Assembly: GCF_964355755.1 (NCBI RefSeq)
Contig: NC_092677.1
Location: 18,374,101-18,438,100 of the forward strand
Direction: 5' to 3'
Origin: Antedon mediterranea
Taxonomy: Eukaryota > Animalia > Echinodermata
DNA length: 64,000 nt
Part shown: piece by piece, positions 4,666 to 56,187 of the stretch
Position numbering within the stretch: position 1 is the first letter of the stretch
How the letters are laid out: every line of letters begins with the position of its first letter
Program-made: the position numbers and the translations under genes
Notes under the pieces: model-generated
Database searches by the model: none
Told to the model about the DNA's origin: nothing
The model's input: the letters and a program-made list of their open reading frames with translations, nothing else

Positions 4666-4667
4666 TT

Positions 4668-5215: not shown

Positions 5216-6766
5216 CAAAATCTCAAACAATATATTTAGTTCTTTAATTCTAAAAAGAAATGACATGTATAAATTAGGATTTAGTTGTCTGTTATAGGAT
5301 TTAAGTAAACCTCATATTGTTTTATTTTTTAAGTTTTCTAAATATCATTATTTTAAATGGAAATATGTCTGTATATATCTCTTTTTTTTTTACCACTTAA
5401 ATATCCTGAAAGTATATAACATTAGCTTTAGTTTTATATCAAACATGTTAAGACTGCTAAAAGTTGAACATTTTTAAAATCCCCCAAAAAATTGTGGAAT
5501 TGCCCTACTAATACTCACAGCTGTAGCTGAAACTGTAAATCTTCTGTTAATAAAAAACAATTACAATCTAAAAAATACAAGGAAAAACATTGATAATGGC
5601 AATAAACAACATTAACACTTTTTCCAAATCAACAAGCTTCTTAATCAATGTCTGAAAAATTAGGAAATTTCCTTAAAATGACTTTGGCTATGGGCCAGCT
5701 AATTGGGGCCGACATGTTGTCTCAATGGTAATTTCATTTAATAGTTTGATCACAAACAATAAAATTTGAATTATGTAAATGTTTCATAATAGTATAAATG
5801 CCTACAAAATAACAGGCAACACTTCACTCCCAATCATGAGACCATAAATCATCTCTACAAATTATTTATTTTATGTTCACTATTTACGATATTCTAGAGA
5901 TTATGAAGTACTGTAGAAACAATAATGTTATTACTGTACATGTATCTCTTCCAACTCTTTAGGAACTGATACAACTAAAAACTAGGCCTAGCCCCTACCT
6001 AGGAGGCCTAGGCTAGTAGGCATAGAAGAGAACTTCGCAAAAAGCAGACTCAGCTTGCTAACAATGCTAAGTAGAGTAGGCTATATTATACCGGTATTTA
6101 ATTTTAAGGCATGGTATTCAAGATAAAGTTTGTTAACAAATTAGGAATTAATATATAGTTATAAGCCAGATGCAAAATGGAACTAGGCTAGCGTCACTAT
6201 GCCTCTACTACAGTACTGTACAACTAAACCTAGGCTAGGCTAGGTCTAGGCCTTCCTGAAGAGGTAATCCGGGACACGGCTAGGCCTAACCTAGCTAGGC
6301 CTAGCCTAGAGGGCCTAGGCTAGGCCATTTCATTTTGATGGCAAACACAAAAACAATTAAATATTACAAATCAACAATCCAAATTAATCAAAATATATCT
6401 TACCTATTTCTAACTATTATATTTAACACAATTGTGTTTAAACTTTTTTAATATAGGCTATATGTTCGTTTTAACAATATAAAATTGCAAAGCAATATCG
6501 GGAGCAATACTAGGCTATAATATTACAAATCCAACATGGAGGTGTAACCACGTTGTTCTTTACTAATATGGCACGCAATCGTCGCCAAAAGTAACATAAA
6601 TGCTGTAGGCCCAGACACAATTCACCACACTTTCACCATAAAAGTAGAGAGCGCATAAACATTTTTTCAATGGATGGCATAATCGTTTTTCTGTGCACAA
6701 TATTCTAACGTATGACGTGCGCTGCGGATAACCTAACTCGTCCGTAGTGACGAGTTCAAATCTAGT

Positions 6767-6844
6767 TGGTTATCCGCACTTGGCGGATAACCTCTTGTTA
6801 TTGTCAGGATCTTTTTTTTTTTTTTTTTTTTTTTTCTATGTTAT
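6767..6844 (+). mobile_element. Head fragment of an A-type non-autonomous Helentron whose body resumes at 29601
   Basis: TGGTTATCCGCacttgGCGGATAACC hairpin, T-run, 'ctatgttat'. Intact units read ...ctatgttat-tcttctttctttccc, and 'tcttctttctttccc' resumes at 29601. Confidence 0.85.
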
Positions 6845-8261
6845 TAGTTATCCGCTTAGTAGCGGATAACTCCTTGTAATCGTCCTGTTTCATCAAATTT
6901 TTTTTCTGTATTATACTTCTTTCTTTCTGTCATTTTTGTGCGTCGCGTTTCTCTAAAACGTGTAGACAGAACATATCGTAACTTTGTCAACATATCGACA
7001 TTTACGTGAACTTGTGCACCTCCTATTTTTGAATGACGTCAGAGTTGCGCAACGTGACTTACGCGCGATTTTATGAATTTCAATGATTGATCATAGACTA
7101 AAAACCAAACATAATTTTGTTTTGAAACCTTGTGAAAATTTAAGTCATATCAAGCGCAAACTTTCTATGGATTAAAATTAGCATGTTTCACAAAAAGTTA
7201 CGCGCGCACGCGCGTTTAAAATTTTAACGTGCGAAATATAAACTTCTAATCAACTTTCTATGCGTTTCATGTCATTTTGAGCATGTCAAAAATTCCCACG
7301 CGCGCGAACATTTTTACGCACGCGGTGCACACGTAGCGTTAAAAACATATTTTTTTCGCGTGATTTATGTTTTTTCAGCCTTTTCTAGTAATGTTACCAA
7401 ATTTTAAACAATTTCGACTTAAAATTACGTCATACGAGCACGTCGAATTAGATAATTTGCACGCGTATTTGGTGAAAAAGTTCAAAAATTCGTCAAAATT
7501 ATGCCTATTTTTAAACAGTCATAGATTCTAAACTACATGGAGAACTTTTTTTTAATTACATATTCTGGAAGTTGATGAGTTGTAGATATCGGATCATGCA
7601 TTAATATGGCTAACCGGACATTGTGACGTCATCGTATGGCCACGCGAATATAAAATATAGGATTTTTGTCTCTTTCGTCATAGCTCATCACATTTAATAG
7701 AGCGCATTTCCACTTATTCGTTGTCCATTTTCACCCCGATTTTAATATATTCTAGATCTATCAACTATCTTTTGCATGAATTAAAATTATTTTAATTTTT
7801 TTAACGTCATCATGCCTAAAAATTTAAATTACGTTGGTCATTAATTTCATCTTTACAGTAAATTTTAATCTGTTATAGCTCTTAAGAATAAAATGTGATA
7901 ATCACGATTAAAACGTTTTCAGGAAGCTATTGTATTGTAGATACAAAATCATATGAAAATTGTGCCAATCGAATGTTGTGACGTCATCATATGGCCAGTT
8001 TAATAAAAATGTCGTATTTTCATCTTTTGCGTTATATTTCATTACATTTAAAAGAGCGCGCATCAATATTTCACGTATTCAAATTTCTTCTACAGGTTAA
8101 TATGTTGTTGCTGAGATAATTTCGTTCTGAAATTTCTACTTTTGCATTTCATTTTGAAACCGTCAAGATGTTAAAAATTACAATAAAATACCGGTCCCGT
8201 AATTTCACCTATTTTACACTGTTTGTGATATGTATACAGATTGTGACGAGTTTCATGTCTA
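6845..8261 (+). mobile_element. B-type non-autonomous unit with a deleted tail, forming the left end of the large element; a second diverged body copy follows at 8262-~9445
   Basis: Colinear with the B unit at 54600-56187 until cagattgt (~8244), then jumps to gacgagtttcatgtcta. The body restarts at acttctttctttctgtcatttttgtgcgtcgc (8262), the same as ~6915. Confidence 0.75.
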
Positions 8262-11200
8262 ACTTCTTTCTTTCTGTCATTTTTGTGCGTCGCGTTTCTC
8301 TAAAACTTGTAAACAGAACATATCGTAACTTTGTCAACATATCGACATTCACGTGAACTTGTGCACCTCCTATTTTTGAATAACGTCAGAGTTGCGCAAC
8401 GTGAATTGCGCGCGAATTTATGAATTTCAATGATTGATCATAGATTATAAACCAAACGTTATTTTGTATTGACACTTAGTGAAAATTTAAGTCATATTAA
8501 GGGCAAACTTTCTATGGATTCAAAATGGCATGTTTCACAAGAAGTTATGCGCGCACGCGCATTTAAAATTTCAAAATGCGCAAAATTAATTTCTAATCTA
8601 CTTTCTACGCTGATCATGACATTTTGAGAATGTCAAAAATTCCCATGCGCGCGAACAATTTTACGCGTAAGGTGCGTACAGTGCATGACAATCATGTGTT
8701 TTTCTCTTGAATTATGATTTCACAGCCTTTCCTAGTCATTTTAAAAAGATTAACATCATTTCAAATTAAAATGACGTCATACGAACACGTTGATTTAGAC
8801 CATTTGCGCGCGTTTTAGTTGAAAAAGTTATAAAATATTGTCAAAATAATGCCAATTTTTAATCTATTATAGCTGTTCAGAATCAATAGTTACCCCAATT
8901 TTTTTACTTATTATGTAAGAAGATAAATTGTAGATATGAATTCATGCAGAATTTTTGTCTCTTTCGTTATTGGTCATCATATTCAACAGAACGCATCTGG
9001 CTTATACGTATTCCATTTCCCCCGAGATTTTAATATTATCTACGTTAATCAACTATCTTTCGTATGAGTTAAAAATATTTTAATTTTTGTGAGTCATCAT
9101 GTCTAAAAATGTAAATAACGTGGGTCACTTATTTTCATCTTTACAGTAAATTTCATTCTGTTATAGCTCGTCAGAATAAAAAGTGATAATCATAATTAAA
9201 ACGTTTTCTGGAAGCTATTGGATTGTAGATACGAATCCATGTGAACATTTTGCCAATCAGATGTTGTGACGTCATGATCATATTTTCATATTTAGCGGCA
9301 TAGTTCATCACAATTAAAAGAGCGCGGATCTATATTTTACGCACTGAAATTTCTTTTACGCGTTAATATGTTTTTGCTGAGATAAATTCTTTCCGAAATT
9401 GCTATCTTAGTGTTTCATTTTGATACCGTTGCCATGTTAAAAATGGATCGAATTTCTGTTATGAGTATACAGTACTTGCCTTTACGACGCCTGAGGGAAT
9501 AGAAACTTGTGGAACAGAGATTGGAATGTTCCATTCATCACAAATCAATACATTTGTATAAACGTATAGTAAATGTATCAAAATAGCATTTTTTAAGGAA
9601 AATCGGCCTGTCTTCAACATTATGATGCTGTACTCGAACTGTTCAACCGGTTTTCAGCTATTAAAAATAATTATCGTAGGAGGAGATAGGAAAATGCGAA
9701 GCGTCCTAGTATTATTGTGTGCGGGTATTTTTCAAGTTGGACATCCATTAGACAGTGTATACTACGATCGGAAAACACCCCTATTTGGGGCAAATCGTTG
9801 AACCTAAATTCGTTTTAATCGTCAATAACTAATTATCTAACTCAATTTAATTAGTAAACAGGGTTACATCAGGTGGTTAAAATCAGTACCAAAAGTACGA
9901 ACCAACTTTATATACCATCGAGTAAAAATTCTAGAAATAAACCGCGATTTATCGAATTTTGCCCTTACGTAAATTTATATATAGATTATATTCATCTTTA
10001 AAAAATGTGTACATCTAATTATTTTGTTTCAACGTACGTATTTATTTCAACGTACGTGTGCATGCTACACGGTACGTTTATATTGTAACATGCATGCACG
10101 TTGTTATGGCAGAAATATGGTACAATATATTATTATATTCAATTTTCTTTCGTCTAATTTAGAAATAATTATTTTATTAGGTTATCATGTCCAAACAATG
10201 GAATAACTTGGTTCATTTAGTTTATCATATAGTATTTTTCCATCTCTCATAGCTTTTCCAAATTTAAAGTGATATTCATGATTAAAACTTATTATGGAAG
10301 CTGTTTAAATTGTAGATATGAATTCATATTCACATTTCCTTATTGGATGTTGTGACGTATTCGGACAGGCAAAGTAAAAAAGTCAGATTTCAGTTTGATT
10401 GAAGATCATAATTCAAGAGAAATAAACATGATTTTCACACTCTGTGGGCGCATGGGCATGTTTGACAAAATAAGTCGGACTTTCATTTCTTGCGTCATAG
10501 TTTGTGTCATTTAAAAGAGCACGTATGTGGAATATTATGTTATATCAAAACAAACGTCATGTTGATATGTTTTTATTTCCATTTCATTCTGCAATTTGTC
10601 ATTAGGTTTTCTATCCTGTATTTCAAGTATGCAACTATGTGTGTAAATAATTGCATTAACTCTATAGATTAAACTCGTTTCATTTAATAGGTTTACACAA
10701 ATAAGAATTGTATTTTTGTTTATACGTATCAATTAATTCGTCTATGAATAAACAATAATACTAATTTTGGTTTATACAAAATTCGTACCCCATATAATGT
10801 ATTATCTATTCCAATAGAATTGGAACCGGCCGTATCATCATACATAACTCATGTAGAGTTCACTTTTGTTACTTTTACTTTTTATTCCTATTTGTACTTT
10901 TATTGTTTTATTTGCTAATTAGATATCTGTATTATAGGGTAATGCGTTTAAGAGCTTCGGCTCATTGCATACCCGTTTTGTATCAAATACGTTTATAGAA
11001 ATATTCTTGTGAAAGAAATACTGTATTATTTTATTGTTGATACAAATAAATGGTACGTATATAGTACCACGAATGATGAATAACAACATCGTTAAGCACA
11101 AAGAGTTCTTTTCTGAAGTCCAAAATTATCTCGTTTGTTAATAACTGGCACTGCCTTGGTTTCTTGTAATGGACCCCATTTTGCTTGACCACAACATTGA

Positions 11201-11779: not shown

Positions 11780-12748
11780 GATGAAAATAATGTAATTTGT
11801 ATAGGCATACGATGGTAAATAAACCTGATTTGCATAATTATATCATTATACAATTATACCGTAAATGTATTTGCATTTAATGTCATTATACTATATATCT
11901 AATTAAGCAAATATAAAAATAGATATTTCAGTCTTCAATATCTGGCCAATATAACAACTCATTTACTGTCACATTTATTATAAAACCTCGTTTAAAAATT
12001 AAATACCATTTTTTAGTTGGCGATTTAGTCTACCAACCCCCCCCCCCCCCCACCTCTTCGGCGCGCCGGCCGGCTCCCAAAACAAGAAGAAAACCGATTT
12101 GAACTACGTCACGCGTCATAGCGACAATGGGAATTCACCACTACTCCATGGAATATTTAGGGGCCTAGTAGCACTTCGGTCACGCTGTGAAGTACGTGGT
12201 TTCGTCGCGATCATACTTTGCTGTTTGAAATATGAAAGTTACTGTACCGCCATGGTTCTACACACATTTTGAAGTTTTTGTTTGTTGTTAATCGAAAGTA
12301 CTTCACTGTTAATAAATTAATACTGATCTTGTTCCAATAATAAGCGATTAAACTTATGTAGCCTAGGAGGCCTATAAAAGGCTATATATACTCCTAGGCC
12401 TAGGGCCTAGTAGTGATGACTAGCTTAGTCTAGCTAGGCCTAGGGCCTAGGAGTATATATAGCCATATAGTCATCTGATGCGTAAAAAGTTTTGTTGTAA
12501 CAAAAAAATGGAAAATAATATAAATGCGCAGTTTCATACGTCACTCTTTCGCGATTGCATAAAAGTTTTGTTGTAACAAAATATAATATTAATGCGGAAA
12601 ATTGTGTCTGTTTTGACTCTAGGTAGGCCCTAGCCTAAGGCCTACTTCCTTCTTTATGAAATTGAATCAGATTAGAAGTATAGCTCTAGCTAGGCCTAGT
12701 ATTTTAAATTTGGAACTATGACTAAAGTTTGGTTTAAGAATACGGGCA
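11780..12748. mobile_element. Decayed, internally rearranged relative of the Harbinger-type MITE at 32543-33469
   Basis: 11785-12035 matches ~33110-33310 in direct orientation; ~12095-12330 matches ~32840-33100 inverted; 12713-12748 (gaactatgactaaagtttggtttaagaatacgggc) matches its right TIR. Confidence 0.65.
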
Positions 12749-13198
12749 TATCCCGGGGCATGCCATATTTCCGTATCCGGAAAAGTGTGTACGTGCCGCT
12801 AGGCCCATGCTATCAATTTATCAGATTTTAAGAGCGTCTCTATAATGAAATCTTCTCATATATTTATAATTTAGTATAACATCACGCTATGCTTCGAAAA
12901 CTAGGCCTAGGCAGAAGCAGGTTGGTTGGCATGCTGTTTTAGAACACTGTAGCTAGCCTAGGCCTTTACCTTATTAAAGCCTAGGCCTAGGCTTTTATTT
13001 ATTTATTTATTACCATATTTACTGAGGGTAGTAGCCTATCCAGTTCCTAATAGAACTGATCATTCAGGGCCCTCGATAAAACATACATACAGTACAACAC
13101 ATAAAATATTAAATATTCAAATGACATAAAATATATTAAAGGCTTAAAAATTTACAATGATTATATAAAATTCATATAAAAGTTAAAATCGTTGACAG

Positions 13199-13202
<4 letters not shown>

Positions 13203-13293
<91 letters not shown>
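13203..13293. repeat. (TA)n microsatellite
   Basis: pure TA run of ~90 bp; a second run lies at ~13401-13438. Confidence 0.98.
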
Positions 13294-13297
<4 letters not shown>

Positions 13298-13398
13298 TAT
13301 GATTCCTAAAATCATTCGACAATCTGAAAATGTTATTTCCTTTAAACGTGAACTTAAACAATTTATTTCCAGTTAATACTGTTCGTACTATGTATAGG

Positions 13399-13440
<42 letters not shown>

Positions 13441-13545
13441 CCTATACATAGTACGAACAGTATTAACTGGAAATAAATTGTTTAAGTTCACGTTTAAAGG
13501 AAATAACATTTTCAGATTGTCGAATGATTTTAGGAATCATATTAA
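13294..13545. repeat. ~250-bp palindrome centred on (TA)n
   Basis: 13294-13400 is the reverse complement of 13439-13545, and the TA spacer is itself self-complementary. Confidence 0.95.
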
Positions 13546-14735
13546 AATACATAGGTGCTTTATAACTGAAACATTGTTTAAAAATCTCTAAAGAAGGTCG
13601 AGGAATAATATAATTACAATTAGAGATGGATCTGGTAGTAGGTCGACCTCCGGGCTGAGTACTGGTTATAACATGCGACTGATGTAATCCGGAACGGTTT
13701 GAACCAAGTTGAAACTGATAACGTTGAGAAACGGATGAGATAGAAATGGTGTTATCAATAAGGTAATCAACGAAGTGTCGATGTACAATTGTATGGTGAG
13801 GCATTTAGCATATGTTCGGTGTATTAGACACACCCTTAATTTAATTTAAAGGCCAAATTTGCATGTCAAAAGTGCGACTTGTACACCGAAATATACGGTA
13901 AAATTATACACATACGTGTAATTCATATTCAATTCATTATCTATATATAATTTTTTTAAATAATGTGTATAATAAGATAATACTTTATTCCGAACGAGGT
14001 CTTTTCCAGATGACTGCTAAAAAAGGTCATCATCATCTTGGAAAGATCTCGTATCAAAGAAGATGAAGCAGTCAAACGACTACTCTGTATAGAAGCGGTA
14101 ATTTGAGGATTGTACTCACCTAATAATAATGTTTTCAACACCAGAAAATGTTTGGAAGTTATGCTTATCTCCTCTTTGAATTTGTTTCATTAACTATTTT
14201 TTTTTTTTTTTTTTTCCCTAATGATAGAACATTTCAATAAATATAAACATAATAAACCAAATTAAATTTGAAATAGCCTCATATAGTTAACTATAATACA
14301 TTCTGTATGTGTGCATTCAACCTAGACTTTTCTTAACTATAGACATAGTAAAACTTGTAACATGTTGTGGATACCCATTTTAACATTACATTATTTCAAT
14401 TATTTACTTTGAACTGACTGATTAAATTAAAATGTAATTCTGCAAAATTAAATGTAATCTATATAACAAATTTCATGTTCGCCTTTTTGTGGTCATGATA
14501 ATACAGATTTGTCTTGTCTTATAAAAATCTTTTACATCACCTATGTTACTTTTATTGGGTATTTCTTTATACAATTAATTGCCCTTATTTTCAGTTCTTC
14601 AAGTTTGCTTTTAACTAGTTTTGTTTGTTTTTATAAAGTTCTTTTTGTAAAATTGTTTTTAACTTAAAAATAATTACGTTATATTAAAAAATTACCCAAT
14701 ACTAAAACATTTGAATAAAATAATGAAGATTATAA

Positions 14736-17700
14736 TCAAAATGTAATTTGAATGGCCTCATGGTAACTATAATAAATTGGAATTACTTCTGCCTGCATTG
14801 AACCTAGACCTTTGCTATAGACATGATCAATCAATGTATAATTTTCAGTAGTAGAACTTGTAACATGTTGTTGATAACCATACTCTGTCATTATATCATT
14901 CACTCTAGAAGGTTGTTTGAAAAGATTTTCATTAAAGTCCCCCATTATGATACATTTAGTACTTACTTTATGTAGATGTTGTAATAATTTCTTCAAATTT
15001 TGACAAAATTGCTTTATATCATAGCTGGGAGGTCTATAAATTACTGAGACAGCAATTGAAATAGGACATGTTATTAAAAATGAAATTACCTCTATATCCT
15101 TAATACCTATGTCTAACCTGCTTGAAAATGTGTTCTTGGTATAGACTGCAACACCTCCATGAGCTTGATTTTTTAATTTTAATGTAAGATTATTTTTATC
15201 AGAATATGAGTCATACCTTTCTTGGTGATACAATTTATACGGTTCTATACTTAAGTTCAAAAAATCATCATCCTTATTCAGCCATGTTTCAGTTAGACAT
15301 ATTATACTAGAATTCATAAACAAATCATTGCACTGAAGATCAGCAAAGTGATGTTTAAGTCCTTGAATGTTATGTAACATTATAGAAAATTTAGATCCTG
15401 AACCATTAACTGCTTTTTCACATTGTATATATGAATTCATCTTGTTTAAATATTCCTTTATATTTGGATCACAATAAATCAAATTAGGATTAACATGTTC
15501 AATGGTAAGTCCAGATATTGAAGTAACACGACTGAGAGCTACATATGCTTGTCCAGGCGCAAAAGTATTTTTTAGGCAAACCAGTGCTTTATTCATTGTC
15601 ATTCCTTGCACTTTATGAACTGTGCATGCATATGCTAATTTGAGTGGAAATTGCTTTCGACTGTATTTTTTTCCAATAGACTCTTGAAACATTTCAATTG
15701 CCTGAATACCAATGTCATTGTTATCAAATTTCACTTTAATTGATACTGGTTTAGCATTTTGACTGGGCTTAATTATTTCTTCAACATGTCCCATACATCC
15801 GTTTGTTAAGCCTTTTTTGACATCTACATTTTTAATCAACATCACTCTGGCATTAAGTGCAATCCACAAGTAATCTAATAAATTACTTTGACGTGACTTC
15901 CGAGGTTTATCACATTTTTTGTTTTGTTTCTTGCTGTTTACTACAGTATCTTCTGCTTCAATACATATAACATCTGAACAGGTTTTATGCAACATTTTTT
16001 TATTCCATTCATTAACCTGCTTATTACATGGGTATATATGCACAGCATCTTCACATTGTTCACCTGTTTCACATGATTTTAAGACGGACAAATCTTTGTC
16101 AGACAAACAATCATGTCTTTCTTTTGTACGCAATTTGTTTAACAATAGAGCAAATTCTTTATCTTCTTTTTGCCTCATGATTTCATCTAACTGCACTTTT
16201 TTAAAGTTATCTACCCACAATGCGTTTTCCACTTTGTCTTTATATAATGAAGTACCCCTCACAGGCGGTAACTGATAAAAATCACCAACTGCAATTATTG
16301 AAATATTACCAAATGCACTATCATTACGTACTTGTTTTATTTGCCGCAATCGTCCGTGGATGTACCAAAGTAACTTTTGATTAACCATTGATATTTCATC
16401 TATAATAACAATTTGCAATTGACCCAACTGATTACGAAGTGCACTTATTTTTTCTTCTCCAAGTGGTTGATATGGAAGTGAAATATGAATAGGAATAGAC
16501 AAAGCACTATGAATTGTATGACCTTTAATATTATATGCTGCGATTCCTGTAGGAGCTAGTTTCAATATTGACATATCATCTGGATTTTCCATAATTTTCC
16601 CGAGAATACGTGTTGCTTCATTATAAATACAATTAACCAAATGACTTTTCCCAGTGCCAGCACCTCCAGTTATAAAAGTGTGAAACGGTTCAGGTTCTTT
16701 TCGGTTAACTTTATCTAAGCACCATTGCCTTGTTTTATAAAATATTTGTTTTTGTTTTTCATTTAAAGACCGAATCATTTTATTTATTTCTGGTCTTGAA
16801 ATATTAAATGAGTTACACTCTATTGTAGATGTTTCAGTTTTTTTAAGCCCAAAATCTGGAACGAAAAATTCTTTTTCTTCATCATCGACGTCTACATTTG
16901 GTTTTGGGTTCTCTAACCTTTCAATTTCACTTTCGGGACATAAGAGGCCCCATGCATCTTCTTGTGGTCCAAATTTTGCTAAAACACTTTCTGCATGTTC
17001 AATGTCATTAGCACTTTTGTCATACTTGTCCATGTTTTTATCAACTATAACATTTACTTTTTGTAATTTACTGTCACATAATTTGACAGATCCTAGCTCA
17101 TAAAATTCTTGATATGATTGAAATTTCGGTGGTTTTAACTGTTTTTCTGTTCGGAAAGGCAGAAATAACTGCAATATACTCATAAAATATTTTTCAGAAG
17201 CTGTATTAATTGGAAACCGAGGGTACCTTATTATAGCATTATTAGTCCGTGTTCTTTTTTGAATAAATCCTAACTGTTTTTTTAATTGGAATACGTTTTT
17301 TCTTTGCACGTTTTCATTCATTGCTGATGTACTTAACATTCTATAATTAGAACAAAATGTTGCGAGACACATTGTGTTAAATTCAAAACTGTCTGGTCGA
17401 GCTTTATATTTGTCAAGCTTATTTGGCAACCATGCACTTTGATGATCATCAAATTTATTTTTAATTACACTTAGTGGTAAACTCATTCTAACAGGATTAG
17501 GTCCTACTGGGATAAATTCAACTTTCCTTGAACATTCTTTCAATTTCAATCCACAAACACGATAAACACTTTCTTGCGCAGATACTTCTCTATTGTTCAT
17601 ATACACATGACCAAGTTTACTTAAGCTTTGTCTAGCATTTTCATTTCCTTCTTTCACTTCTGATGCTGCATGAGATAAAAGCAAGCCCATTTCTCGTTCA

Positions 17701-24290: not shown

Positions 24291-24486
24291 AGTTTCAAAC
24301 ACGCTTTTCCCTGCAACAAATTTCTCCTTGTCAAATCTGAAAAAGAAAAAAACAACAAAAAAATATTATTTTCACTCATTCATCTAGTTTCATTTGATTA
24401 ACACAAATAATGTAGGCGTTACTAATTTTCAATGAACACTGGGAACGTAAAATTGAGGGAAGGTAAAATCAGAGTATGTAAAATAA

Positions 24487-31997: not shown

Positions 31998-32029
<32 letters not shown>

Positions 32030-35366: not shown

Positions 35367-35403
<37 letters not shown>

Positions 35404-39392: not shown

Positions 39393-39432
<40 letters not shown>

Positions 39433-40626: not shown

Positions 40627-40660
<34 letters not shown>

Positions 40661-43026: not shown

Positions 43027-44619
43027 TAGTTATCCGCATTGAGCGGATAACTCCTTGTAACTGTCCTGTTTCATCATCTTTTTTTTTTTTTTCTGTATTC
43101 TTCTTTCTTTCTGTCATTTTTGTGTCTCGCGTAACTCAAAAACGTGTAAACATAACATTTCATAACTTTGTCAACATGTGGGCATTTACGTGAAATTGTG
43201 CACCTCCTATTTTTGAATGACGTCAGAGTTGCGCAACATGACTTACGCGCGTTTTTCCGAATTTCGCGTATTTAACATAGATCGAAAACCATATAACAAT
43301 TTAATATGAAACTTGACAAAAGTTTAAGTTATATCTTGCGCTAACTGACTATGGGAAAAAAATGGCATGTTTCAAACGAAGTTACGCGCGCACGCGCATT
43401 TAAAATTTCAAAATGCGAAAAATCAATTTCTAATCAACTTTCTACGCGTTTCATGTAATTTTAAGCATGTAAAAAATTCCCACGCGCGCGCCTTTTTTAC
43501 GCGCATGGTGCGAACGTAGCGTTGAAAACAATTTTTTTTTTGTGATTTATGTTTTTTCAGCCTTTTCTAGTAATTTTACCAACTTTTAAACAATTTCGAT
43601 TTAAAATTACGTCATACGGGCACGTTGAATTGAATAATTTACGTGCGTTTTTTATGAAAAAGTTAAAAAATTTGTCAAAATTCGTCAAAATTATGCCTTT
43701 TTTTAAACAGTCAAAGATTCTAAACAACGAGGTGAAATTTTTTTTAATTACAAATTCTGGAAGTTGATGAGTTGTAGATATCGGATCATGAATCAATATG
43801 GCTAACCGGACATTGTCACGTCATCGTATGGCCACACGAATGAAAAATATAGGATTTTTGTCTCTTTCGTTATTGCTCATCATATTCAATGGAGCGCATC
43901 ACGCCTATCTGTATTCCTTTTTCTCCGAGATTTTAATATTGTCTAGGTCAATCAACTATCTTTCGCATGAGTTAAAAATATTTTAATTTTTATGACGTCA
44001 TCATGCCTAAAAATTATAATTAACAGGGTTATTAATTTCATCTTTACAGTAAATTTTAATCTGTTATAGCTCGTAAGAATAAAAAGTGATAATTATGATT
44101 AAAACGTTTTCTGGAAGCTATTGGACTGTAGATACGAATTAATGTGAACATTTTGCCAATCGGATGTTGTGAAATCATCCTATGGCCAGTTGAATAAAAA
44201 AAGTCGTATTTTCATATTTTGCGTCATGGTTCATCATATTTAAACGAGCACGCATCTATATTCTACGTATTCAAATTTCTTCTACACGTTAATATGTTGT
44301 TGGTGAGATAATTTACTTCCGAAATTGCTATCTTAGTGTTTAATTTTAATACCGTCGCCATGTTAAAAATTGGAATAAACGGTGGGTCCCGTAATTTCAC
44401 CTATTCTACACTGTATGTAATATGTATACAGATTATACTGCATATACTATATGACACAAAATAGACAGAATTCAGCACTAACAAGATATGATATTCTTCA
44501 GTTCAGGTCATAATGCCATAATCTTTTTCTGTGTGCAATATTCCAACGTATGACGTGCACGTGGCATTTGTCGTGGTGCGGATAACTAACTCGTCAATGT
44601 GACGAGTTTCATGTCTAGT
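43027..44619 (+). mobile_element. B-type non-autonomous Helentron unit (~1.59 kb)
   Basis: Head TAGTTATCCGCattgaGCGGATAACT; B-type tail ending at 44619. Confidence 0.88.
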
Positions 44620-44680
44620 TGGTTATCCGCACTTGGCGGATAACCCCTTGTTATTGTCAGGATCTTTTTTTTTTTCTTTT

Positions 44681-44725
44681 TGGTTATCCGCACTTGGCGG
44701 ATAACCTCTTGTTATTGTCAGGATC

Positions 44726-44756
<31 letters not shown>

Positions 44757-45900
44757 TCTATGTTCTTCTTTCTTTCCACGAATTTTGTTCGCAGCGTATC
44801 TCTAACTCTGGCCAACATATGATTGTATAACTTTGTCAAAAGATTTCCCTGTAGCTGTAGATGTGCAAGAAACTTTTTTTTATGAATTTTGAGTTGCGCA
44901 GCGTAAGTTACGCGCGATTTTATGAATTTAAATGATTGATCATAGATTAAAAACCGAAAGTTATTTTGTATTGAAACTTTGTGAAAATTTAAGTCATATC
45001 AAGCGCAAACTTTCTATGGATTAAAAATTGCATGTTTCACAGAAAGTTACGCGCGCACGCGCGTTTAAAATTTCAAAATGCAAAAAATCAACTTCTAATC
45101 AATTTTCTACGCGTTTCATATCATTTTGAGCATTTCAAAAATTCCCAGGCTTGCGCAATTTTTTTACGCGCGCGTGCGCACGTAGCGCAAAAAAATCTTT
45201 TTTTTGCTTGATTTTTGTTTTTTCTGTCTTTTATAATATATTTACCAATTTTCAATCAATTTTGCCTTAAAATCTCGTCATACGAGCACGTAGAATTAAA
45301 CAATTTGCGCGCAATTTTGATGAAAAAGTCCAAAAATTTGTCAAAATTATGCCTTTTTTTAAACAGTCATAGATTCTAAACTACGTGGTAAACTTTTTTA
45401 TAATTACATATTCTGGTAGTAGATGAGTTGTAGATATCGAATCATGTATCAATATGGCTAACAGGACATAGTGACGTCATCGTATGGCCACTCAAATATA
45501 AAATATAGGATTTTTGCCTCTTTCGTCATAGCTCATCACATTTAATAGAGCGCATCTCCACTTATCCGAATTCCATTTCCCCCCATTTTTGTATATTGTC
45601 TATGCCAATCAATTATCTTTCGCATGATATACCGTTTTTAAAATTGTGATGACGTCATCATGTCCAAAAGCGTCAATAACTTGGGCCATTTATTTTCACA
45701 TATTCTTCACTGTATGTAGTACGTATACAATATATAGTGTATACCGTGTATACTTAGACGTGACGTAAAATAGAGAGCGCACTAACATTTTTTCAATGGC
45801 ATAATGGTTTTCTCTGCGCAATATTCTAACGTATGACGTGCACGTGGCGTTTGCTCTGCGGATAACCTAACTCGTCCGTAGTGACGAGTTCAAATCTAGT
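44681..45900 (+). mobile_element. A-type unit nested in the T-run of another A-type unit (44620-44680 + 45901-47049)
   Basis: Two heads 61 bp apart; after the tail at 45900 the sequence resumes with T-run + ctatgttcttc and no head. Confidence 0.85.
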
Positions 45901-48900
45901 TTTTTTTCTATGTTCTTCTTTCTTTCCACGATTTTTGTTCGCAGCGTATCTCTAATTCTGGCCAACATAGGATTGTATAACTTTGACAAAAGATTGCTCT
46001 GTAGCTGTAGATGTGCAAGAAACTTTTTTTTTTCAATTTCGAGTCGCACAGCGTAAGTTACGCGCGATTTTATGAATTTCAATGATTGATCATAGATTAA
46101 AAACCCAAAGTCATTTTCTATTGAAACTTGGTGAAAATTTAAGTTATATTATGCGCAAACTTTCTATGGATTAAAAATGGCATGTTTCACATAAAGTGAC
46201 GCGCGCACGCGCATTCAAAATTTCAAAATGCGCAAAACTCATTTCTAATCAACTTTCTACGCGTTTCATGTCATTTTGAGCATTTCAAAAATTCCCAAGC
46301 GTGCGCAATATTTTTACGCGCGCGTGCGCAAATAGCGCAAAAACATCATTTTTTTGCTTGATTTTTGTTTTTTCAGCCTTCTCTAGTAATTTTATCAATT
46401 TTCAATCAATTTTTACTTAAAATCACGTCACACGAGCACGTAGAATTGGATAATTTGCACGCGTTTTTGATGAAAAACTTCAAAAATTCGTCAAAATTAT
46501 ACCTTTTTTTGAACAGTCATAAATTCTAAACTACGTGGTGTACTTTTTTGAAATTACATATTCTGGAAGTAGATGGGTTGTATTTCTTGAATCATGCATT
46601 GATATGGCTAACCGGACATTGTAACGTCATCGTATGGCCACCCGAATACAAAATATAGGATTTTTTTCTCTTTCATCATAGCTCGTCAAATTTAATAGAG
46701 CGCATCTCTACTTATCCGTATTCCATTCCCACCATTTCTTTATTTTGTCCAGGTCAATCAATTATCTTTCACATGATTTACGATTTTTAAAATTGTGATG
46801 ACGTCATCATGGTCAAAAGCGTCATTAACTTTGGTCACTTATTTTCACCTATTCTGAACTGTATGTAGTACGTATACAGTATAGTGTATACCATTATATA
46901 CTTTTACGTGACGCAAAATAGAGAGCGCACTAACATTTTTTCAATGGCATAATCGTTTTTTGGCGCGCAATATTCTAACGTATGACGTGCACGTGGCTTT
47001 TGCGCTGCGGATAACCTAACTCGTCCGTAGTGACGAGTTCAAATCTAGTTGGTTATCCGCACTTGGCGGATAACCTCTTGTTATTGTCAGGATCTTTTTT
47101 TTTCTCTTTCTCTTTTTTCTTCTATTTTCTTCTTTCTTTCCACGATTTTTGTTCGCAGCGTATCTCTAATTCTGGCCAACATATGATTGTATAACTTTGT
47201 GAAAAGATAGCCCTGTAGCTGTAGATGTGCAAGAAACTTTTTTTTTCGAATTTCGAGTTGCGCAGCGTAAGTTACGCGCAATTTTATGAATTTCAATGAT
47301 TGATCATAGAATAAAAACTAAAAGTCATTTTGTATTGAAACTTGGTGAAAATTTAAGTCATAACATGCTCAAACTTTCTATGGATTAAAAATGGCATGTT
47401 TGACAGAAAGTTACGCGCGCACGCGCGTTTAAAATTTCAAAATGCGAAAATTCAATTTCTAATCAACTTTCTACGCGTTTCATGTCATTTTGAGCATTTC
47501 AAAAATTCCCACGCGTTCGCAATTTTTTTACGCGCGCGTGCGCACGTAGCGCAAAAACGTCTTTTTTTTGCTTGATTTTTGTTATTTCAGCCTTTTCTAG
47601 TAAATTTATCAATTTTCAATCAATTTCGACTTAAAATCACGTCATACGAGCACGTAGAATTGAACAATTTAGGCACGTTTTTGATGAAAAAGTTCAAAAA
47701 TTTGTCAAAATTATGCCTTTTTTTAAACATTCATAGATTCTAAACTCCGTGGTGAACATTTTTAAAATTTCAGATTCTGGAAGTAGATGAATTGTAGATA
47801 TCAAATCATGCATGAATATGGCTAACCGGACATTGTGACGTCATCATATGGCCACTCGAATATAAAATATAGGATTTTTGTCACTTTCGCATAGCTCATC
47901 ACATTTAATAGAGCGCATCTCCACTTATCCGTGTTTCATTTCCTCCCATTTTGTTATATTGTCTAGGCCAATCGATTATCTTTCGCATAATCTACGATTT
48001 TTTAAATTGTGATGACGTCATCATGTCCAAAAGCGTCAATAACTTTGGTCACTTATTTTCACCTATTCTGCACTGTATGTAGTACGTATACAATATAGTG
48101 TTATACCGTATATACTTAGACGTGACGCAAAATAGAGAGCCCACTAACATTTTTTCAATGCCATAATCGTTTTTTTGCGCGCAATATTCTAACGTATGAC
48201 GTGCACGTGGCTTTTGCGCTGCGGATAACCTAACTCGTCCGTAGTGACGAGTTCAAATCTAGTTGGTTATCCGCACTTGGCGGATAACCCCTTGTTATTG
48301 TCAGGATCTTTTTTATTTTTTTTATTTTTTTTCTCTTTTTTTTTCTATTTTCTTCTTTCTTTCCACGATTTTTGTTCGCAGCGTATCTCTAATTCTAGTC
48401 AACATAAGATTCTATAACTTTGTCATAAGATTGCCCTGTAGCTGTAGATGTGCAAGAAACTTTTTTTTATGAATTTGGAGTCGCGCAGCGTAAGTTACGC
48501 GCGATTTTATGAATTTCAATGATTGATCATAGATTGAAAACCAAAAGTCATTTTCTATTGAAACTTCGTGAAAATTTAAGTTATATCATGCGCAAACTTT
48601 CTATGGATTAAAAATGGCATGTTTGACATAAAGTTACGCGAGCACGCGCGTTTAAAATTTCAAATTGCGAAATATCCATTTCTAATCAACTTTCTACGCG
48701 TTTCAGGGCATTTTGAGCATTTCAAAAATTCCCAGGCGTGCGCATTTTTTTTACGCGCGCGTGCGCACGTAGCGCAAAAACATCTTTTTTTTGCTTGATT
48801 TTTGTTTTTTCAGCCTTTTCTAGTAAATTTACCAACTTTCAATCAATTTCGACTTAAAATCACGTCATACAAGCACGTAGAATTGAACAATTTGCGCGCG

Positions 48901-50652
48901 TTTTTGAAGAAAAAGTTCAAAAATTTGTCAAAATTATGCCTTTTTTAAAACAGTCATAGATTGTAAACTACGAGGTGAACTTTTTTTAAATTACACATTC
49001 TGGAAGTTGATGAGTTGTAGATATCGAATCATGCATCGATATGGCTAACAGGACATAGTGACGTCATCGTATGGCCACTCGAATATAAAATATAGGATTT
49101 TTGTCTCTTTCGTCATAGCTCATCACATTTAATAGAGCGCATCTCCACTTATCCGAATTCCATTTTCCCCCATTTTTTTATATTGTCTATGCCAATCAAT
49201 TATCTTTTGCATGATATACCGTTTTTAAAATTGTGATGACGTCATCATGTCCAAAAGCGCCAATAACTTGGGCCACTTATTTTCACATATTCTTCACTGT
49301 ATGTAGTACGTATACAATGTATAGTGTATACTGTGTATACTTAGGCGTGACGTAAAATAGAGAGCGCACTAACATTTTTTCAATGGCATAATGGTTTTCT
49401 CTGCACAATATTCTAACGTATGACGTGCACGTGGCGTTTGCTCTGCGGATAACCTAACTCGTCCGTAGTGACGAGTTCAAATCTAGTTTTTTTTTTTTTT
49501 TTTTTTCTATGTTCTTCTTTCTTTCCACGAATTTTGTTCGCAGCGTATCTCTAACTCTGGCAAACATATGATTGTATAACTTTGTCAAAAAATTGCCCTG
49601 TAGGTGTAGATGTGCAAGAAACTTTTTTTTATGAATTTTGAGTTGCGCAGCGTAAGTTACGCGCGGTTTTATGAATTTAAATGATTGATCATAGATTAAA
49701 AACCGAAAGTCATTTTGTATTGAAACTTGGTGAACATTTAAGTCATATCAAGCGCAAACTTTCTATGGATTAAAAATGGCATGTTTCACAGGAAGTTACG
49801 CGCGCACGTGCGTTTAAAATTTCAAAATGCAAAAAATCAACTTCTAATCAACTTTCTACGCGTTTCATGTCATTTTGAGCATTTCAAAAATTCCCAGGCA
49901 TGCGCAATTTTTTTACGCGCGCGTGCGCACGTAGCGCAAAAACATCTTTTTTTTGTTTGATTTTTGTTTTTCCAGCCTTTTCTAGTAAATTTACCAACTT
50001 TCAAACAATTTGGACTTAAAATCACGTCATACGAGCACGTAGAATTGAAAAATGTTCGCGTGTTTTTGATGAAAAAGTTCAAAAATTCCTGAAAATTATG
50101 CCTTTATTTAAAAAGTCATAGATTCTAAACTCCGTGGTGAACATTTTTAAAATTTCAGATTCTGGAAGTAGATGAGTTGTAGATATCAAATCATGCATCC
50201 ATATGGCTCACCGGACATTGTGACGTCATCGTATGGCCACTGGAATATAAAATATAGGATTTTTGTCTCTTTCGCATAGCTCATCACATTTAATAGAGCG
50301 CATCTCTACTTATCCGTATTGCATTTCCCCCCATTTTGTTATATTGTTTAGGTCAATCAATTATCTTTCGCATGGTTAACAATTTTTAAGATTGTTATGA
50401 CGTCATCATTTGCAAAAGCGTCAATAACTTTGGTCACTTATTTTCACCTATTCTGCACTGTATGTTGTACGTATACAGTATATAGCGTATACCGTATATA
50501 CTTAGACGTGACACAAAATAGAGGGCTCACTAACATTTTTTTCAATGGCATAATCGTTTTTCTGCGCGCAATATTCTAACTTATGTGTCATGCGCGTGGC
50601 TTTTGCGCTGCGGATAACCTAACTCGTCCGTAGTGACGAGTTCAAATCTAGT

Positions 50653-52216
50653 TGGTTATCCGCAACGAAGTTGCAGGATAACCTCTTGTGATTGTACGAA
50701 ATCATTCTGTATGATTTTTGTGTAACGCTTTTCTCTAAAACTCGCAAACATAACATTTCGGTAACTATCTTAACATATTGACATTTACGTAACGTCGTCA
50801 AGCGAAGCTTTTCATGACGTTTACAATTGCGCAACGTGACTTACGCGCGATTTAACGATTTTGTCGTATTTAACATAGCTCGACAACCAAATAACATTTC
50901 AACTTGAAACTTTGCAAAAGTTTAATTTATATCATGCGCTAACTTTCTGTTGAAAAAAAATTCCGTGTTTTACACAAAGTTACGCGCGCACGCGCATTTA
51001 AAGTTTCAAAATGCGCAAAATTAATTTCTAATCAACTTTCTACGCGTTTCATGTCGTTTTAAGCATGTCAAAAATTTCCACGCGTGCGCACATTTTTACG
51101 TGTGCGGTGCGCACGTAGCATTGAAAACGTATTTTTTTCGCGTGATTTATGTTTTTCCAGCCTTTTCTAGTAATTTTACAAAATTTTAAACAATTTCGAC
51201 TTAAAGATACGTCATACGAGCACGTCGAATTGGACAATTTGCGCGCGTTTTTTATGAAAAGGTTAAAAAATTTGTTTAAAATATGCCTTTTTTTAAACAG
51301 TCGTACTTTCTAAACTAGACGGTCAAATTTTTGTGGATGACATTTTCTAGAAGTAGATGAGCTGTAGATGTCGGATCAGGTACTAATATGGCTAACCGGA
51401 CATTGTGACGTCATCGTATGGCCACGCGAATATAAAATTTAGGATTTTTGTATCTTTCGTCATAGCTCATCACATTGAATAGAGCGCATCTCCACTTATC
51501 CGTTTTCCATTTTCACCCCGATTTTAATATTGTCTAGGTCAATCAAGTATCTTTCGCATGAGTTAAAAATATTTTAATTTTGTTGACGTCATCATGCCTA
51601 AAAATTTAAATCACGTGTGGCATTAATTTCATCTTTACAGTAAATTTTAATCTGTTATAGCTCGTAAGAATAAAATGTGATAATCACGATTAAAACTTTC
51701 TCTGGAAGCTATTGGATTGTAGATACGAAATTATGTAAAAATGTTGCCAATCGGATGTTGTGACGTCATTATATGGCCAGTTAAATAAAAAAGGTCGTAT
51801 TTTCATCTTTTGCGTCATAATTCATTACATTTAAAAGAGCGCGAATCAATATTTCACGTATTCAAATTTCTTCTACACGCTAATACGTTGTTGCTGAGAT
51901 AATTTCCTTTCGGAATTGCTATCTTCGCGTTTCATTTTAAAACCGTCAACATGTTAAAAATTGCAATAAATAGCGGTCCCGTAATTTCACCTATTCTACA
52001 CTGTATGTGATATGGATACAGATTATACTGTGTATACTATATATGAATTTAAATAATAAAATTCAGCAATAACAAACATATCATATTCTTCAGTTCAGGT
52101 CATAATGCCAACGTGAACACTTCCTTTTGTCCTCAACCTATCCCCTTAATGTTAATGTTGCACCACTTGCGCGGCGGATAACCAAACTCGTCAAAGTGAC
52201 GAGTTACATGTCTAGT
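50653..52216 (+). mobile_element. C-type non-autonomous Helentron unit (~1.56 kb)
   Basis: Head TGGTTATCCGCaacgaagttgcaGGATAACC; tail GCGGATAACCAaactcgtcaaagtgacgagttacatgtCTAGT; B-like body with distinct subterminal sequences. Confidence 0.8.
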
Positions 52217-54599
52217 TGGTTATCCGCACTTGGCGGATAACCCCTTGTTATTGTCAGGATCTTTTTTTTTCTTTTTTTTTTTTTTCTATCTTATTCTTCT
52301 TTCTTTCCCGGAATTTTGTTCGCAGCGTATCTCTAATTCTGGCCAATATAAGATTGTGTAACTTTGTCATAAGATTGACCTCTAGCTGTAGATGTGCAGG
52401 ACGTTTCGTTTTTTAACTTTAGAGTCGCGCAGCGTAAGTTACGCGCAATTTTATGAATTTCAATGATTGATCATAGATTAAAAATCAAAAGTCATTTTGT
52501 ATTGAAACTTGGTGAAAATTTAAGTCATATCAAGCGCAAACTTTCTATGGATTAAAAATGGCATGTTTTACAAAAAGTTACGCGTGCACGCGCGTTTAAA
52601 ATTTCAAAATGCGAAAAATCAATTTCTAATCAACTTTCTACGCGTTTCATGTCATTTTGAGCATTTGAAAAATTCCCACGCGTGCGCAATTTTTTTACGC
52701 GCGCGTGCGCACGTAGCGCAAAAACATCATTTTTTTGCTTGATTTTTGTTTTTCCTGTCTTTTTTAGTAAATTTACCAACTTTCAAACAATTTCAACTTA
52801 AAATCACGTCATACGAGCACGTAGAATTAAACAATTTACGCGCATTTTTGATGAAAAAGTTCAAAAATTTGTCAAAATTATGCCTTTTTTTAAACAGTCA
52901 TAGATTCTAAACTACGTGGTGAACTTTTTTAAAATTACATATTCTAAATGTAGATGAGTTGTAGATATCAAATCATGCATCCATATGGCTAACCGGACAT
53001 TGTGACGTCATCGTATGGCCACTGGAATATAAAATATAGGATTTTTGTCTCTTTCGCATAGCTCATCACATTTAATAGAGCGCATCTCTACTTATCCGTA
53101 TTCCATTTCTCCCCATTTTGTTATATTTTCTAGGTCAATCAATTATCTTTCGCATGGTTAACAATTTTTAAGATTGTTATGACGTCATCATTTGCAAAAG
53201 CGTCAATAACTTTGGTCACTTATTTTCACCTTTTCTGAACTGTATGTAGTACGTATACAGTATAGCGTATACCGTATATACTTAGACGTGACACAAAATA
53301 GAGGGCTCACTAACATTTTTTTCAATGGCATAATGGTTTTCTCTGCGCAATATCCTAACGTATGACGTGCACGTGGCGTTTGCTCTGCGGATAACCTAAC
53401 TCGTCCGTAGTGACGAGTTCAAATCTAGTATTTATTTGTTTCCTTCCACCCTTCTCCCCCATTTTTTGTGCGCAGCGTATCTCTAATTCTGGCCAACATA
53501 TGATTGTATAACTTTGTCAAAAGATTGCCCTGTAGCTGTAGATGTGCAAGAAACTTTTTTTTTCAAATTTCGAGTCGCGCAGCGTAAGTTACGCGCGATT
53601 TTGTGAATTTCAATGATTGATCATAGAATAAAAACTAAAAGTCGTTTTGTATTGAAACTTGGTGAACATTTAAGTCATATAATGCGCAAACTTCCTATGG
53701 ATTAAAAATGGCATGTTTCATAAAAATTTACGCGCGCACGCGTATTTAAAAATTCAAAATGCGAAAAATCAATATCTAATCAACTTTCTACGCGTTTCAT
53801 GTCATTCTGAGCATTTCAAAAATTCCCACGCGTGCGCAATTTTCTTACGCGCGCGTGCGCACGTAGCGCAAAAACATCTTTTTTTTGCTTGATTTTTGTT
53901 TTTTCTGTCTTTTATAATAAATTTACCAATTTTCAATCAATTTTGCCTTAAAATCTCGTCATACGAGCACGTAGAATTAAACAATTTGCGCGCAATTTTG
54001 ATGAAAAAGTCCAAAAATTTGTCAAAATTATGCCTTTTTTTAAACAGTCATAGATTCTAAACTACGTGGTAAACTTTTTTATTATTACATATTCTGGTAG
54101 TAGATGAGTTGTAGATATCGAATCATGTATCAATATGGCTAACAGGACATTGTGACGTCATCGTATGGCCACTGGAATATAAAATATAGGATTTTTTTCT
54201 CTTTCGTATAGCTCATCACATTTAATAGAGCGCATCTCCACTTATCCGTATTCCATTGCCCTCCATTTCTTTATATTGTCTAGGTCAATCAATTATCTTT
54301 CGCATGATTCACCATTTTAAAAATTGTGATGACGTTATCATGTCCAAAAGCGTCAATAACTTTGGTCACTTATTTTCACCTATTCTGCACTGTACGTAGT
54401 ACGTATACAGTATATAGTGTATACCGTATACACTTTGACTTGACACAAAATAGAGAGCGCACTAACATTTTTTCAATGCCATAATCGTTTTTTTGCCCGC
54501 AATATTCTAACGTACGACGTGCACGTGGCTTTTGCGCTGCGGATAACCTAACTCGTCCGTAGTGACGAGTTCAAGTCTAGTTTTTTTTTTTTTCTTTAT

Positions 54600-56187
54600 T
54601 AGTTATCCGCTTAGTAGCGGATAACTCCTTGTAATCGTCCTGTTTCATCATATTTTTTTTTTTTTTCTGTATTATACTTATTTCCTTCCGTCATTTTTGT
54701 GCGTCGCGTTTCTCTAAAACGTGTAAACAGAACATATCGTAACTTTGTCAACATATCGACATTTACGTGAACTTGTGCACCTCCTATTTTTGAATGACGT
54801 CAGAGTTGCGCAACGTGAATTACGCGCGATTTTATGAATTTCAATGATTGATTATAGACTAAAAACCAAACATAATTTTGTTTTGACACTTTGTGAAAAT
54901 TTAAGTCACATCAAGCGCAAACTTTCTATGGATTAAAAATAGCACCATTCACAAAAAGTTACGCGCGCACGCGCGTTTAAAATTTTAGAGTGCGAAAAAT
55001 CAACGTCTTATCAACTTTCTATGCGTTTCATGTCATTTTGAGCATGTCAACAATTCCCACGCGCGCGAAACTTTTTACGCACGCGGTGCACACGTAGCGT
55101 TAAAAACATATTTTTTTCGCGTGATTTATGTTTTTTCAGCCTTTTATAGTAATGTTACCAACTTTTAAACAATTTCGACTTAAAATTACGTCATACGAGC
55201 ACGTCGAATTAAATAATTTGCACGCGTTTCTGGTGAAAAAGTTCAAAAATTCGTCAAAATTATACCTATTTTTAAACAGTCATAGATTCTAAACTACATG
55301 GAGAACTTTTTTTTAATTACATATTCTGGAAGTTGATGAGTTGTAGATATCGAATCATGCATTAATATGGCTAACCGGACATTGTGACGTCATCGTATGG
55401 CCACGCAAATATAAAATATAGGATTTTTGTCTCTTTCGTCATAGCTCATCACATTTAATAGAGCGCATCTCCACTTATTCGTTGTTCATTTTCACCCCGA
55501 TTTTAATATCTTCTAGGACTATCAACTATGTTTTGCATGAATTAAAAATTTTTTAATTTTTTTAACGTCATCATGCCTAAAAATTTAAATTACGTTGGTC
55601 ACTAATTTCATCTTTACAGTAAATTTTAATCTGTTATAGCTCGTAAGAATAAAATGTGATAATCACGATTAAAACGTTTTCAGGAAGCTATTGTATTGTA
55701 GATACAAAATCATGTGAAAATTGTGCCAATCGAATGTTGTGACGTCATCATATGGCCAGTTAAATACAAAAAGTCATATTTTCATCTTTTGCGTTATATT
55801 TCATTACATTTAAAAGAGCGCGCATCAATATTTCACGTATTCAAAATTCTTCTACACGTTAATATGTTGTTGCTGAGATAATTTCATTCTGAAATTTCTA
55901 CTTTTGCATTTCATTTTGAAACCGTCAAGATGTTAAAAATTACAATAAAATACGGGTCCCGTAATTTCACCTATTTTACACTGTTTGTGATATGTATACA
56001 GATTGTACTGTTACTATGTATATGACACAAAATAACAGAATTCAGAAATAACAACATATCATATTCTTCAGTTCAGGTCATAATGCCTTAATATTTTTCT
56101 GTGTGCAATATTCTAACGTATGACGTGCACGTGGGCGTTTGTCGAGCGGATAACTAACTCGTCAAAGTGACGAGTTTCATGTCTAGT
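54600..56187 (+). mobile_element. B-type unit nested in a headless A-type unit at the ttat|tcttc site
   Basis: Left flank tttctttat, right flank tcttctttctttccacg; head identical to that at 6845. Confidence 0.85.

Follow-up and report, generated by a model that had tools for sequence, protein, structure and literature searches.

Helentrons and HINEs are rolling-circle transposons, and Helentron families are defined by the identity of their subterminal inverted repeats (subTIRs) (PMC4067079). Adjacent and tandem Helitrons have been described in bat and maize, and a parallel for Helentrons was suggested in the same study. Drosophila willistoni carries three DINE-1 subtypes, two of which are one base apart, and a compensatory change was noted in the 3′ stem of DINE-1 (PMC2374699). 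The circle model of Helitron1 has been summarized together with the FoHeli elements (PMC5148889). In the literature passages covered, which are parts of the papers cited throughout, no biochemical reconstitution of a Helentron was found, and the role of the subterminal repeats was merely presumed. Here, we describe a chain of rolling-circle transposons that extends over 50 kb and comprises two Helentrons and approximately 20 short derivatives, in a 64,000-nucleotide (nt) stretch of the Antedon mediterranea genome (contig NC_092677.1, positions 18,374,101 to 18,438,100, forward strand). This whole stretch is referred to as the window, and positions are counted from its first letter.

The window is AT-rich and has one long open reading frame (ORF). 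The array spans 6767–57327, with its last boundary, CTAGT|T, at 57327. It is probably a head-to-tail mixture of HINEs of the DINE-1 type with two Helentrons whose ORF is reversed; its matched ends are subfamily marks, and new copies are likely to insert where resident copies have their terminal cut site. This reading builds on directly observed features: how the ends are built, which domains the protein contains, 16 junctions of exactly CTAGT|T, the nesting of three elements in head T-tracts and the mosaic makeup of the bodies.

Ends and arrangement of the array

The window contains 19 heads, 23 intact tails and one broken tail, all on the plus strand and assigned to types A, B and C. A head consists of a T, the subTIR, a short loop and an inverted copy of the subTIR, and in a tail the subTIR is followed by an 8-bp stem-loop and then CTAGT. 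The exact pattern of the head hairpin occurred 18 times compared to none in 100 shuffles; the C head, which has a bulge, is the 19th head. All 19 heads and 23 tails thus have the DINE-1-type anatomy of HINEs, with a 5′ subTIR next to an inverted repeat and a 3′ subTIR followed by a stem-loop. The subTIR match is 11–12 bp in 18 of the 19 pairs and 10 bp in A04; the range for the group is 11–18 bp. Insertion at T|T without target duplication was evident from three nested insertions, for which uninterrupted A copies represent the empty sites, and a T follows 22 of the 23 tails. Canonical Helitrons (HLE1) have a 5′ TC start, an A|T target and no inverted repeats, whereas the heads here begin with TG or TA, the target is T|T and subTIRs are present; the sole resemblance to HLE1 is the 3′ hairpin plus CTAG. 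HINEs and Helentrons share their tails over approximately 125 bp (A) and 64 bp (B), while the head of Helentron copy 1 lies outside the window and that of copy 2 has apparently been lost. Pairwise differences were 0.5% among A tails (18 copies), 1.5% among A heads (14 copies) and 10.1% among bodies, and the ends are therefore approximately 7 to 20 times less variable than the bodies. No microsatellite or tandem central repeat was detected in the HINE bodies by Tandem Repeats Finder at a score of 80.

The order of the elements is as follows.

3–527, minus strand: N-terminal 175 codons of RepHel copy 1 with a PHD-like finger; continues beyond the window edge
6363–6442, minus strand: tail-proximal block common to both Helentrons (homologue 28947–29024), with splice-donor-like AGGTAAG on the minus strand in a putative first exon
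6724–6766, plus strand: A-type tail of copy 1 (3′ subTIR, 8-bp stem-loop, CTAGT)
6767–6844, plus strand: A01 head and T-tract; A01 continues from 29601
6845–8261, plus strand: B4, a B-type HINE nested in A01 at T|T, tail without subTIR and half of the hairpin; 96% identical to 54601–56006
8262–9444, plus strand: B-like body without a head, probably the head-side region of Helentron copy 2
14736–23948, minus strand: RepHel ORF of copy 2, uninterrupted, 3070 aa, directed away from the tail
29559–29600, plus strand: B-type tail of copy 2
29601–30733, plus strand: rest of A01 including its A tail
30734–36549, plus strand: four A HINEs of approximately 1.2 kb each, spacer-free head-to-tail; A03 has an unrelated 0.92-kb insert
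36550–38137, plus strand: B1, a B-type HINE, with A on both sides via exact junctions
38138–43026, plus strand: four A HINEs with exact junctions
43027–44619, plus strand: B2, a B-type HINE, with A on both sides via exact junctions
44620–47049, plus strand: A10, with A11 (44681–45900) nested in its T-tract
47050–50652, plus strand: A12, A13 and headless A14 (49488–50652)
50653–52216, plus strand: C element with G-type subTIR, bulged head hairpin and B-type tail loop; middle 90–99% identical to B1, ends distinct
52217–54581, plus strand: A15 and A16 (A16 at 53430–54581, head not recognizable)
54582–57327, plus strand: headless A17, in which B3 (54600–56187) is nested at the T|T site also used by B4; end of the array

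Sixteen of the 19 heads abut the preceding tail without a spacer (CTAGT|T). The other three lie in the T-tract of an A head, and none lies in the 1.1-kb bodies. The junctions comprise 10 A-A, two A-B, two B-A, one A-C and one C-A, i.e., 6 of 16 are mixed. Among the six separable insertions (B1, B2 and C at junctions; B3, B4 and A11 in T-tracts), three are at junctions, which represent 21 of the 4488 TT sites (p = 2e-6); this statistic is conservative in counting separable events only, and it comes from one locus. Bodies can tolerate inserts, because an unrelated 0.92-kb element with terminal inverted repeats (32547–33469) landed at a TA in the body of A03; related fragments are present inside copy 2 (11780–12750). 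B3 and B4 share a TTAT|T site (54599/54600 and 6844/6845) in two A hosts that are just 88% identical, which suggests a second hotspot and fits the TNAT|T preference given for FoHeli1 and FoHeli2 (PMC5148889).

Exact head-to-tail junctions are also produced by concatemers (PMC5932611), and the chain might have arisen as a rolling-circle concatemer from a single donor, with later divergence, or might be an artefact of assembly; a perfect 2157-bp duplication just past the array end could be taken to point this way. We consider this very improbable. The A copies are 86.7–97.4% identical to one another while their ends are near-invariant, neighbours are not closest relatives and the types are mixed. 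Adjacent A copies showed 90.2% identity compared to 90.0% over all 136 pairs (permutation p = 0.21); because they are no closer than random pairs, the array is not a single concatemer, and a simple concatemer was rejected. The duplication itself (57352–61664, 100% identical) holds, by eye, a tRNA-derived SINE-like head, and it may be recent or an assembly artefact.

The A bodies are mosaic. One segment of A09 is 100% identical to A11 and the next is 99% identical to A16, and non-adjacent near-twins were found (A02 and A15, 96%; A14 and A17, 97%). Together with three unmatched tails, these observations fit an array produced mainly by recombination, in which one early tandem or a few were enlarged through unequal crossing-over or through recombination of circles into resident copies, end targeting was weak and mixed blocks were copied from elsewhere. 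This account is nevertheless unlikely. A crossover between A and B, whose bodies are 71–76% identical, would give mismatched head and tail, and such pairs numbered 0 of 19; B1, B2 and C are three different elements (82–87% identical) with exact junctions on both sides of each; and the identity matrix had no higher-order period evident on by-eye inspection.

The family was present in all four public sequence runs searched (21840, 2137, 4541 and 21351 contigs), the first of which is possibly from the window's own sample. Among the matches listed, joints of A tail to A head occurred in three of the four runs, including one from a second organism, although a circle joint and a genomic tandem look alike. 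The tail pattern had no match in the metagenome contigs searched, and the tail motif was present in none of 80 loci from a profile scan, loci that are merely 27–39% identical.

Matched ends and predicted folding

A sequence-only reading of the window had claimed that a G/A change in the head is matched by C/T in the tail, and it had proposed a broader model in which head–tail pairing is selected, perhaps as a unit-defining switch, and the diverged transposases serve cognate ends, in the strict form with each clade restricted to one end code. The matching held in all 19 pairs. When nesting was taken into account in the pairing, base 2 of the head agreed with the tail base throughout (15 G/C and 4 A/T), the hairpin arm carried the same change, and the change is thus kept at all three copies of the motif. 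Mismatched head and tail types, which would have counted against the model, occurred in none of the window's 19 pairs. A second matched change, overlooked in the sequence-only reading, was found at position 12 of B3 (head T, tail A), where 16 of the 19 pairs are complementary. The tail sequences it listed were correct for most copies, with a caatgt loop in one of four B tails and a caagtCTAG ending in 2 of 18 A tails.

Both the three-site match and the second change in B3 favor the switch and its codes. However, the 19 pairs are not 19 independent observations, because the A and B bodies fall into separate clades (100/100 support), with 92 fixed differences across 1200 columns between A and B1–B3. 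A Fisher test (p = 2.6e-4) was accordingly discarded as evidence of covariation, since the copies are related and independence fails. The G/A change represents a single event (two, should C be a reversal) that was inherited by descent. In all, just two or three evolutionary events are involved, in lineages that differ in 92 of 1200 columns anyway. Two matching follow-up changes would occur by chance in approximately 1 of 700 cases, based on the 7.7% fixed-difference rate and assuming that half of the changes give the needed base. Because the ends are constrained and this chance is so small, their matching was likely selected. The earlier claim of selection thus stands for matched ends, which vary far less than the bodies, but does not extend to pairing itself: a single protein that reads three sites would leave the same pattern, so matching is no proof of pairing and fits protein binding at three sites as well as strand pairing. 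Matched, lineage-specific subTIRs are also the expected, published family mark of Helentrons.

The proposal of C as a third code was not borne out. TGGTTATCCGCA is common to the C head and 13 of the 14 A heads, and the "extra T" assigned to C starts all 19 heads. C is a real third lineage, yet with the subTIR of A. Its ends are 64–73% identical to the others, and the loop of its head was found in four contigs of the second organism's run among the matches listed. The retention of matched ends around a B1-like middle is a point in favor of codes. The idea of three separate codes nevertheless fails, since A and C are not orthogonal, and the mixing of types at 6 of the 16 exact junctions argues against strict insulation, as does cross-talk in the predicted folds.

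The sequence-only reading had further proposed that the head subTIR pairs either locally or with the tail. In folds of whole linear elements, the head paired with its local arm with a probability (P) of 0.88–0.99 and with the tail at most 0.11 in all six folds; long-range head–tail pairing on the linear strand, predicted to lose to the local hairpin, was rejected. At a joined tail|head junction, the repeats are approximately 33 nt apart and two folds lie within 1–3 kcal/mol. The tail alternative competes with the head hairpin at the joined junction only. These close energies favor a switch, as does head–tail complementarity that is longer than that of the head hairpin in 17 of the 19 pairs. 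When 35 tail–head combinations were folded at two flank lengths and on both strands, B1/B2 heads paired with B1/B2 tails (P 0.36–0.78) in preference to A tails (0.20–0.42) and C tails (0.01–0.04), again in its favor. In contrast, A and C cross-paired (0.49–0.92), B tails paired with A heads (0.33–0.82), and the copy 2 tail paired with none of the five head types tested (at most 0.28). These probabilities are a rough guide and swing with flank length (A|A 0.32–0.97). In such folding models, a switch, if real, would operate at circle or tandem junctions and would be leaky.

The two Helentrons

The protein of copy 2 was predicted to contain Herpes_teg_N, OTU, DUF6570 (E value, 1.6e-19), Helitron_like_N (8e-36), PIF1 (7e-27) and Exo_endo_phos (2e-9) domains. 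Copy 2 thus combines Rep, a PIF1 helicase and a C-terminal AP endonuclease in a single ORF, as expected of a Helentron, while copy 1 is cut by the window edge. Rep motif 2 carries the Helentron signature FYRIEFQMRGSPHVH, with F/Y-x-R before the motif and S between G and P (PMC4067079), and DUF6570 is the marker of HLE2 (PMC11417382). The stem-loop end lies upstream of the ORF as in HLE2-reverse, and both ORFs are on the minus strand, directed away from the tails. The best match of the copy 2 protein was annotated in the crinoid A. mediterranea and was 100% identical across seven tested domain segments. The N-terminus of copy 1 (175 codons) is 65% identical to copy 2 and 91–92% identical to proteins P0004, P0014 and P0021; no full-length copy 1 protein was found among the proteins of 308–2000 aa searched, a size range too small to be informative. 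A block approximately 320–580 bp inside the tail is homologous between the two genes (77.5%) and includes a splice-donor-like motif in both. Because both genes run away from their tails and carry this block, each is tied to its own tail.

Copy 1 had been called autonomous with an A tail; the tail was confirmed (6724–6766), whereas the window holds just 175 N-terminal codons of its gene. Similarly, copy 2 has a B tail (29559–29600), as claimed, but not the B head assigned to it. The head at 6845 was rejected as that of copy 2, as it opens the separate HINE B4 (1.4 kb, 96% identical to the HINE B3), whose own tail is broken, and it mismatches the copy 2 tail at subTIR position 12. In the alignment, 162 nt of the B4 tail are gone, including the subTIR, and a further 78-nt gap removes the expected junction and the next head. 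The simplest reading is that copy 2 formerly lay directly behind B4 and lost its own head, giving a composite like those proposed for FoHeli (PMC5148889). Diverged (approximately 70%) further copies of an internal HINE module are present on the head side of copy 2 (10139–10526). They are consistent with HINEs deriving from this head-side region.

Rep trees (9 and 16 of 120 hits, plus the window copies) resolved two clades among close paralogues, with copy 2 in one and the copy 1 N-terminus grouping with members of the other. The claim of diverged transposases for the two end types is upheld to this extent, and two clades with one gene per tail type favor the code model. However, the Rep of copy 2 is 88–89% identical to the clade with which copy 1 groups, and all six close paralogues, drawn from both clades, have the same Rep motifs 2 and 3. 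The association of transposase clade and end type would reflect co-descent, with one gene per end type, and not necessarily specificity. Considering the few evolutionary events, the weak linear pairing, the cross-pairing, the mixed junctions and the identical Rep motifs, we regard the model of a unit-defining switch with exclusive codes as improbable.

Both RepHel copies encode an N-terminal C4HC3 PHD-like finger after a hydrophobic leader on the minus strand (23370–23600 and 3–260). It scored under the curated cut-off for Pfam PHD (E value, 0.002–0.005) and could read chromatin and guide targeting. Tandem arrays of 343-bp and 241-bp units lie between the copy 1 tail and ORF (2073–4668), and a single 51-bp relic matches copy 2 at 25517–25567. 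Three fold-back elements are located between the copy 2 ORF and tail (24484–25238, 26463–26842 and 27769–28877), one of which has arms of a 21-bp minisatellite. Downstream of the same ORF, a near-perfect 268-bp inverted repeat with (TA)n tracts occupies 13196–13553.

Proposed growth of the array and related systems

The array was probably built up by insertions at resident ends, with recombination shuffling it afterwards. In the proposed course, RepHel would need one and the same 11–12-bp motif in three places (head, arm of the head hairpin and tail), and a change would therefore persist only if it reached all three. RepHel would terminate and nick at T|T after the tail hairpin (CTAGT|T), and the incoming head would be joined to the free 3′ end of a resident tail, as in circle closure. 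These nicking and joining steps are those of the Helitron1 circle model; the passages covered of PMC13085455 and of bioRxiv 10.64898/2026.09.17.752431 contained nothing specific to this question. Since joining to a resident tail gives the same junction as circle closure, arrays would grow on themselves. Recognition would have to be loose enough for A, B and C to stack on one another, and the mixed junctions imply that the joining step tolerates a one-base difference. Later unequal exchange and gene conversion would yield headless units and mosaics. Head–tail pairing, if any, would act at the joined junction of a circle or tandem and not across the element length.

Several points weigh against growth at resident ends. 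Its nicking and joining steps come from studies of Helitron1 and would apply to Helentrons by analogy. The tails at 50610, 54539 and 57285 have no head in the window, and the tail at 53429 is followed by A instead of T. Bodies are mosaic, so recombination may have multiplied the junctions, and A-B-A-like blocks could have come ready-made from another array via end-bypass. Exactness is not universal, because the joint spacers listed for the first public run add 3, 4 or 8 T, forms that are absent from the window. Finally, junction use was counted at one locus only.

A more elaborate version of growth at resident ends combines it with pairing. The terminal cut site of resident relatives would be the preferred target and give self-growing mixed arrays, the joined junction would adopt two near-equal folds (a tail–head stem around the cut site, or the head hairpin), and single matched base changes in the subTIR would bias which neighbours the two transposase clades excise as a unit. 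This version is speculative and rather doubtful. The locus could serve as a test kit for subTIR strand pairing against protein binding, because its enzyme of 3070 aa is encoded without interruption, its natural end variants are set apart by single matched bases, and cognate as well as mixed junctions already occur in it. Should resident ends be targeted throughout the genome, this would provide a direct path from a rolling-circle transposon to satellite-like arrays, and also a means for the element to avoid genes.

The elements themselves are further members of the known Helentron/HINE group, and their end "codes" are ordinary; the exact mixed stacking is the less usual part and worth pursuit. 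A search of titles and the starts of abstracts found no description of these elements or of a long mixed HINE array; most subscription papers and the supplements were outside its coverage, and the latter, such as the table of subTIRs in PMC4067079 or the figures on HLE2-reverse in PMC11417382, may bear on novelty.

The most similar systems described are the Helentrons and HINEs, above all Helentron-Da-40 and DINE-Da-40 (PMC4067079), with which the locus shares the Rep/helicase–AP endonuclease fusion, OTU, the F/Y-x-R and G-S-P Rep signature, the 5′ subTIR with a nearby inverted repeat, the 3′ subTIR with a stem-loop, the TT target without duplication and, for Helentron-Da-40, an ORF opposite to the usual direction. 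Unlike in the Helentrons described there, a CTAG resembling that of Helitron1 precedes the final T of the tail here. In addition, two Helentrons and approximately 20 full elements from several subfamilies stand in exact register here, whereas the passages covered of that paper merely suggest Helentron clustering. The 13-bp subTIRs of DINE-1 in 12 Drosophila species also vary by lineage while the structure is kept (PMC2374699); the subTIR match here is 11–12 bp, and the HINE bodies differ in having no central repeat detected in the scan described above. DUF6570, Herpes_teg_N, the endonuclease domains and a stem-loop end upstream of the ORF are shared with HLE2 subgroup b and HLE2-reverse (HELIANO; PMC11417382), although HLE2-reverse was named for fungal elements, and here the host is an animal and the enzyme has an endonuclease. 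Self-insertion, double heads and composites through loss of internal ends recall FoHeli of Fusarium, where joined-end circles are a feature of FoHeli1, but self-insertions in the parts covered are single cases and not a 50-kb array (PMC5148889). As in tandem transposable elements formed by double insertion, repeated insertion at the same site would give dimers that are expanded by unequal exchange (McGurk and Barbash, 2018; PMC5932611). That model relies on a duplicated target site, whereas no duplication occurs here and the terminal T of the element recreates the T|T target.

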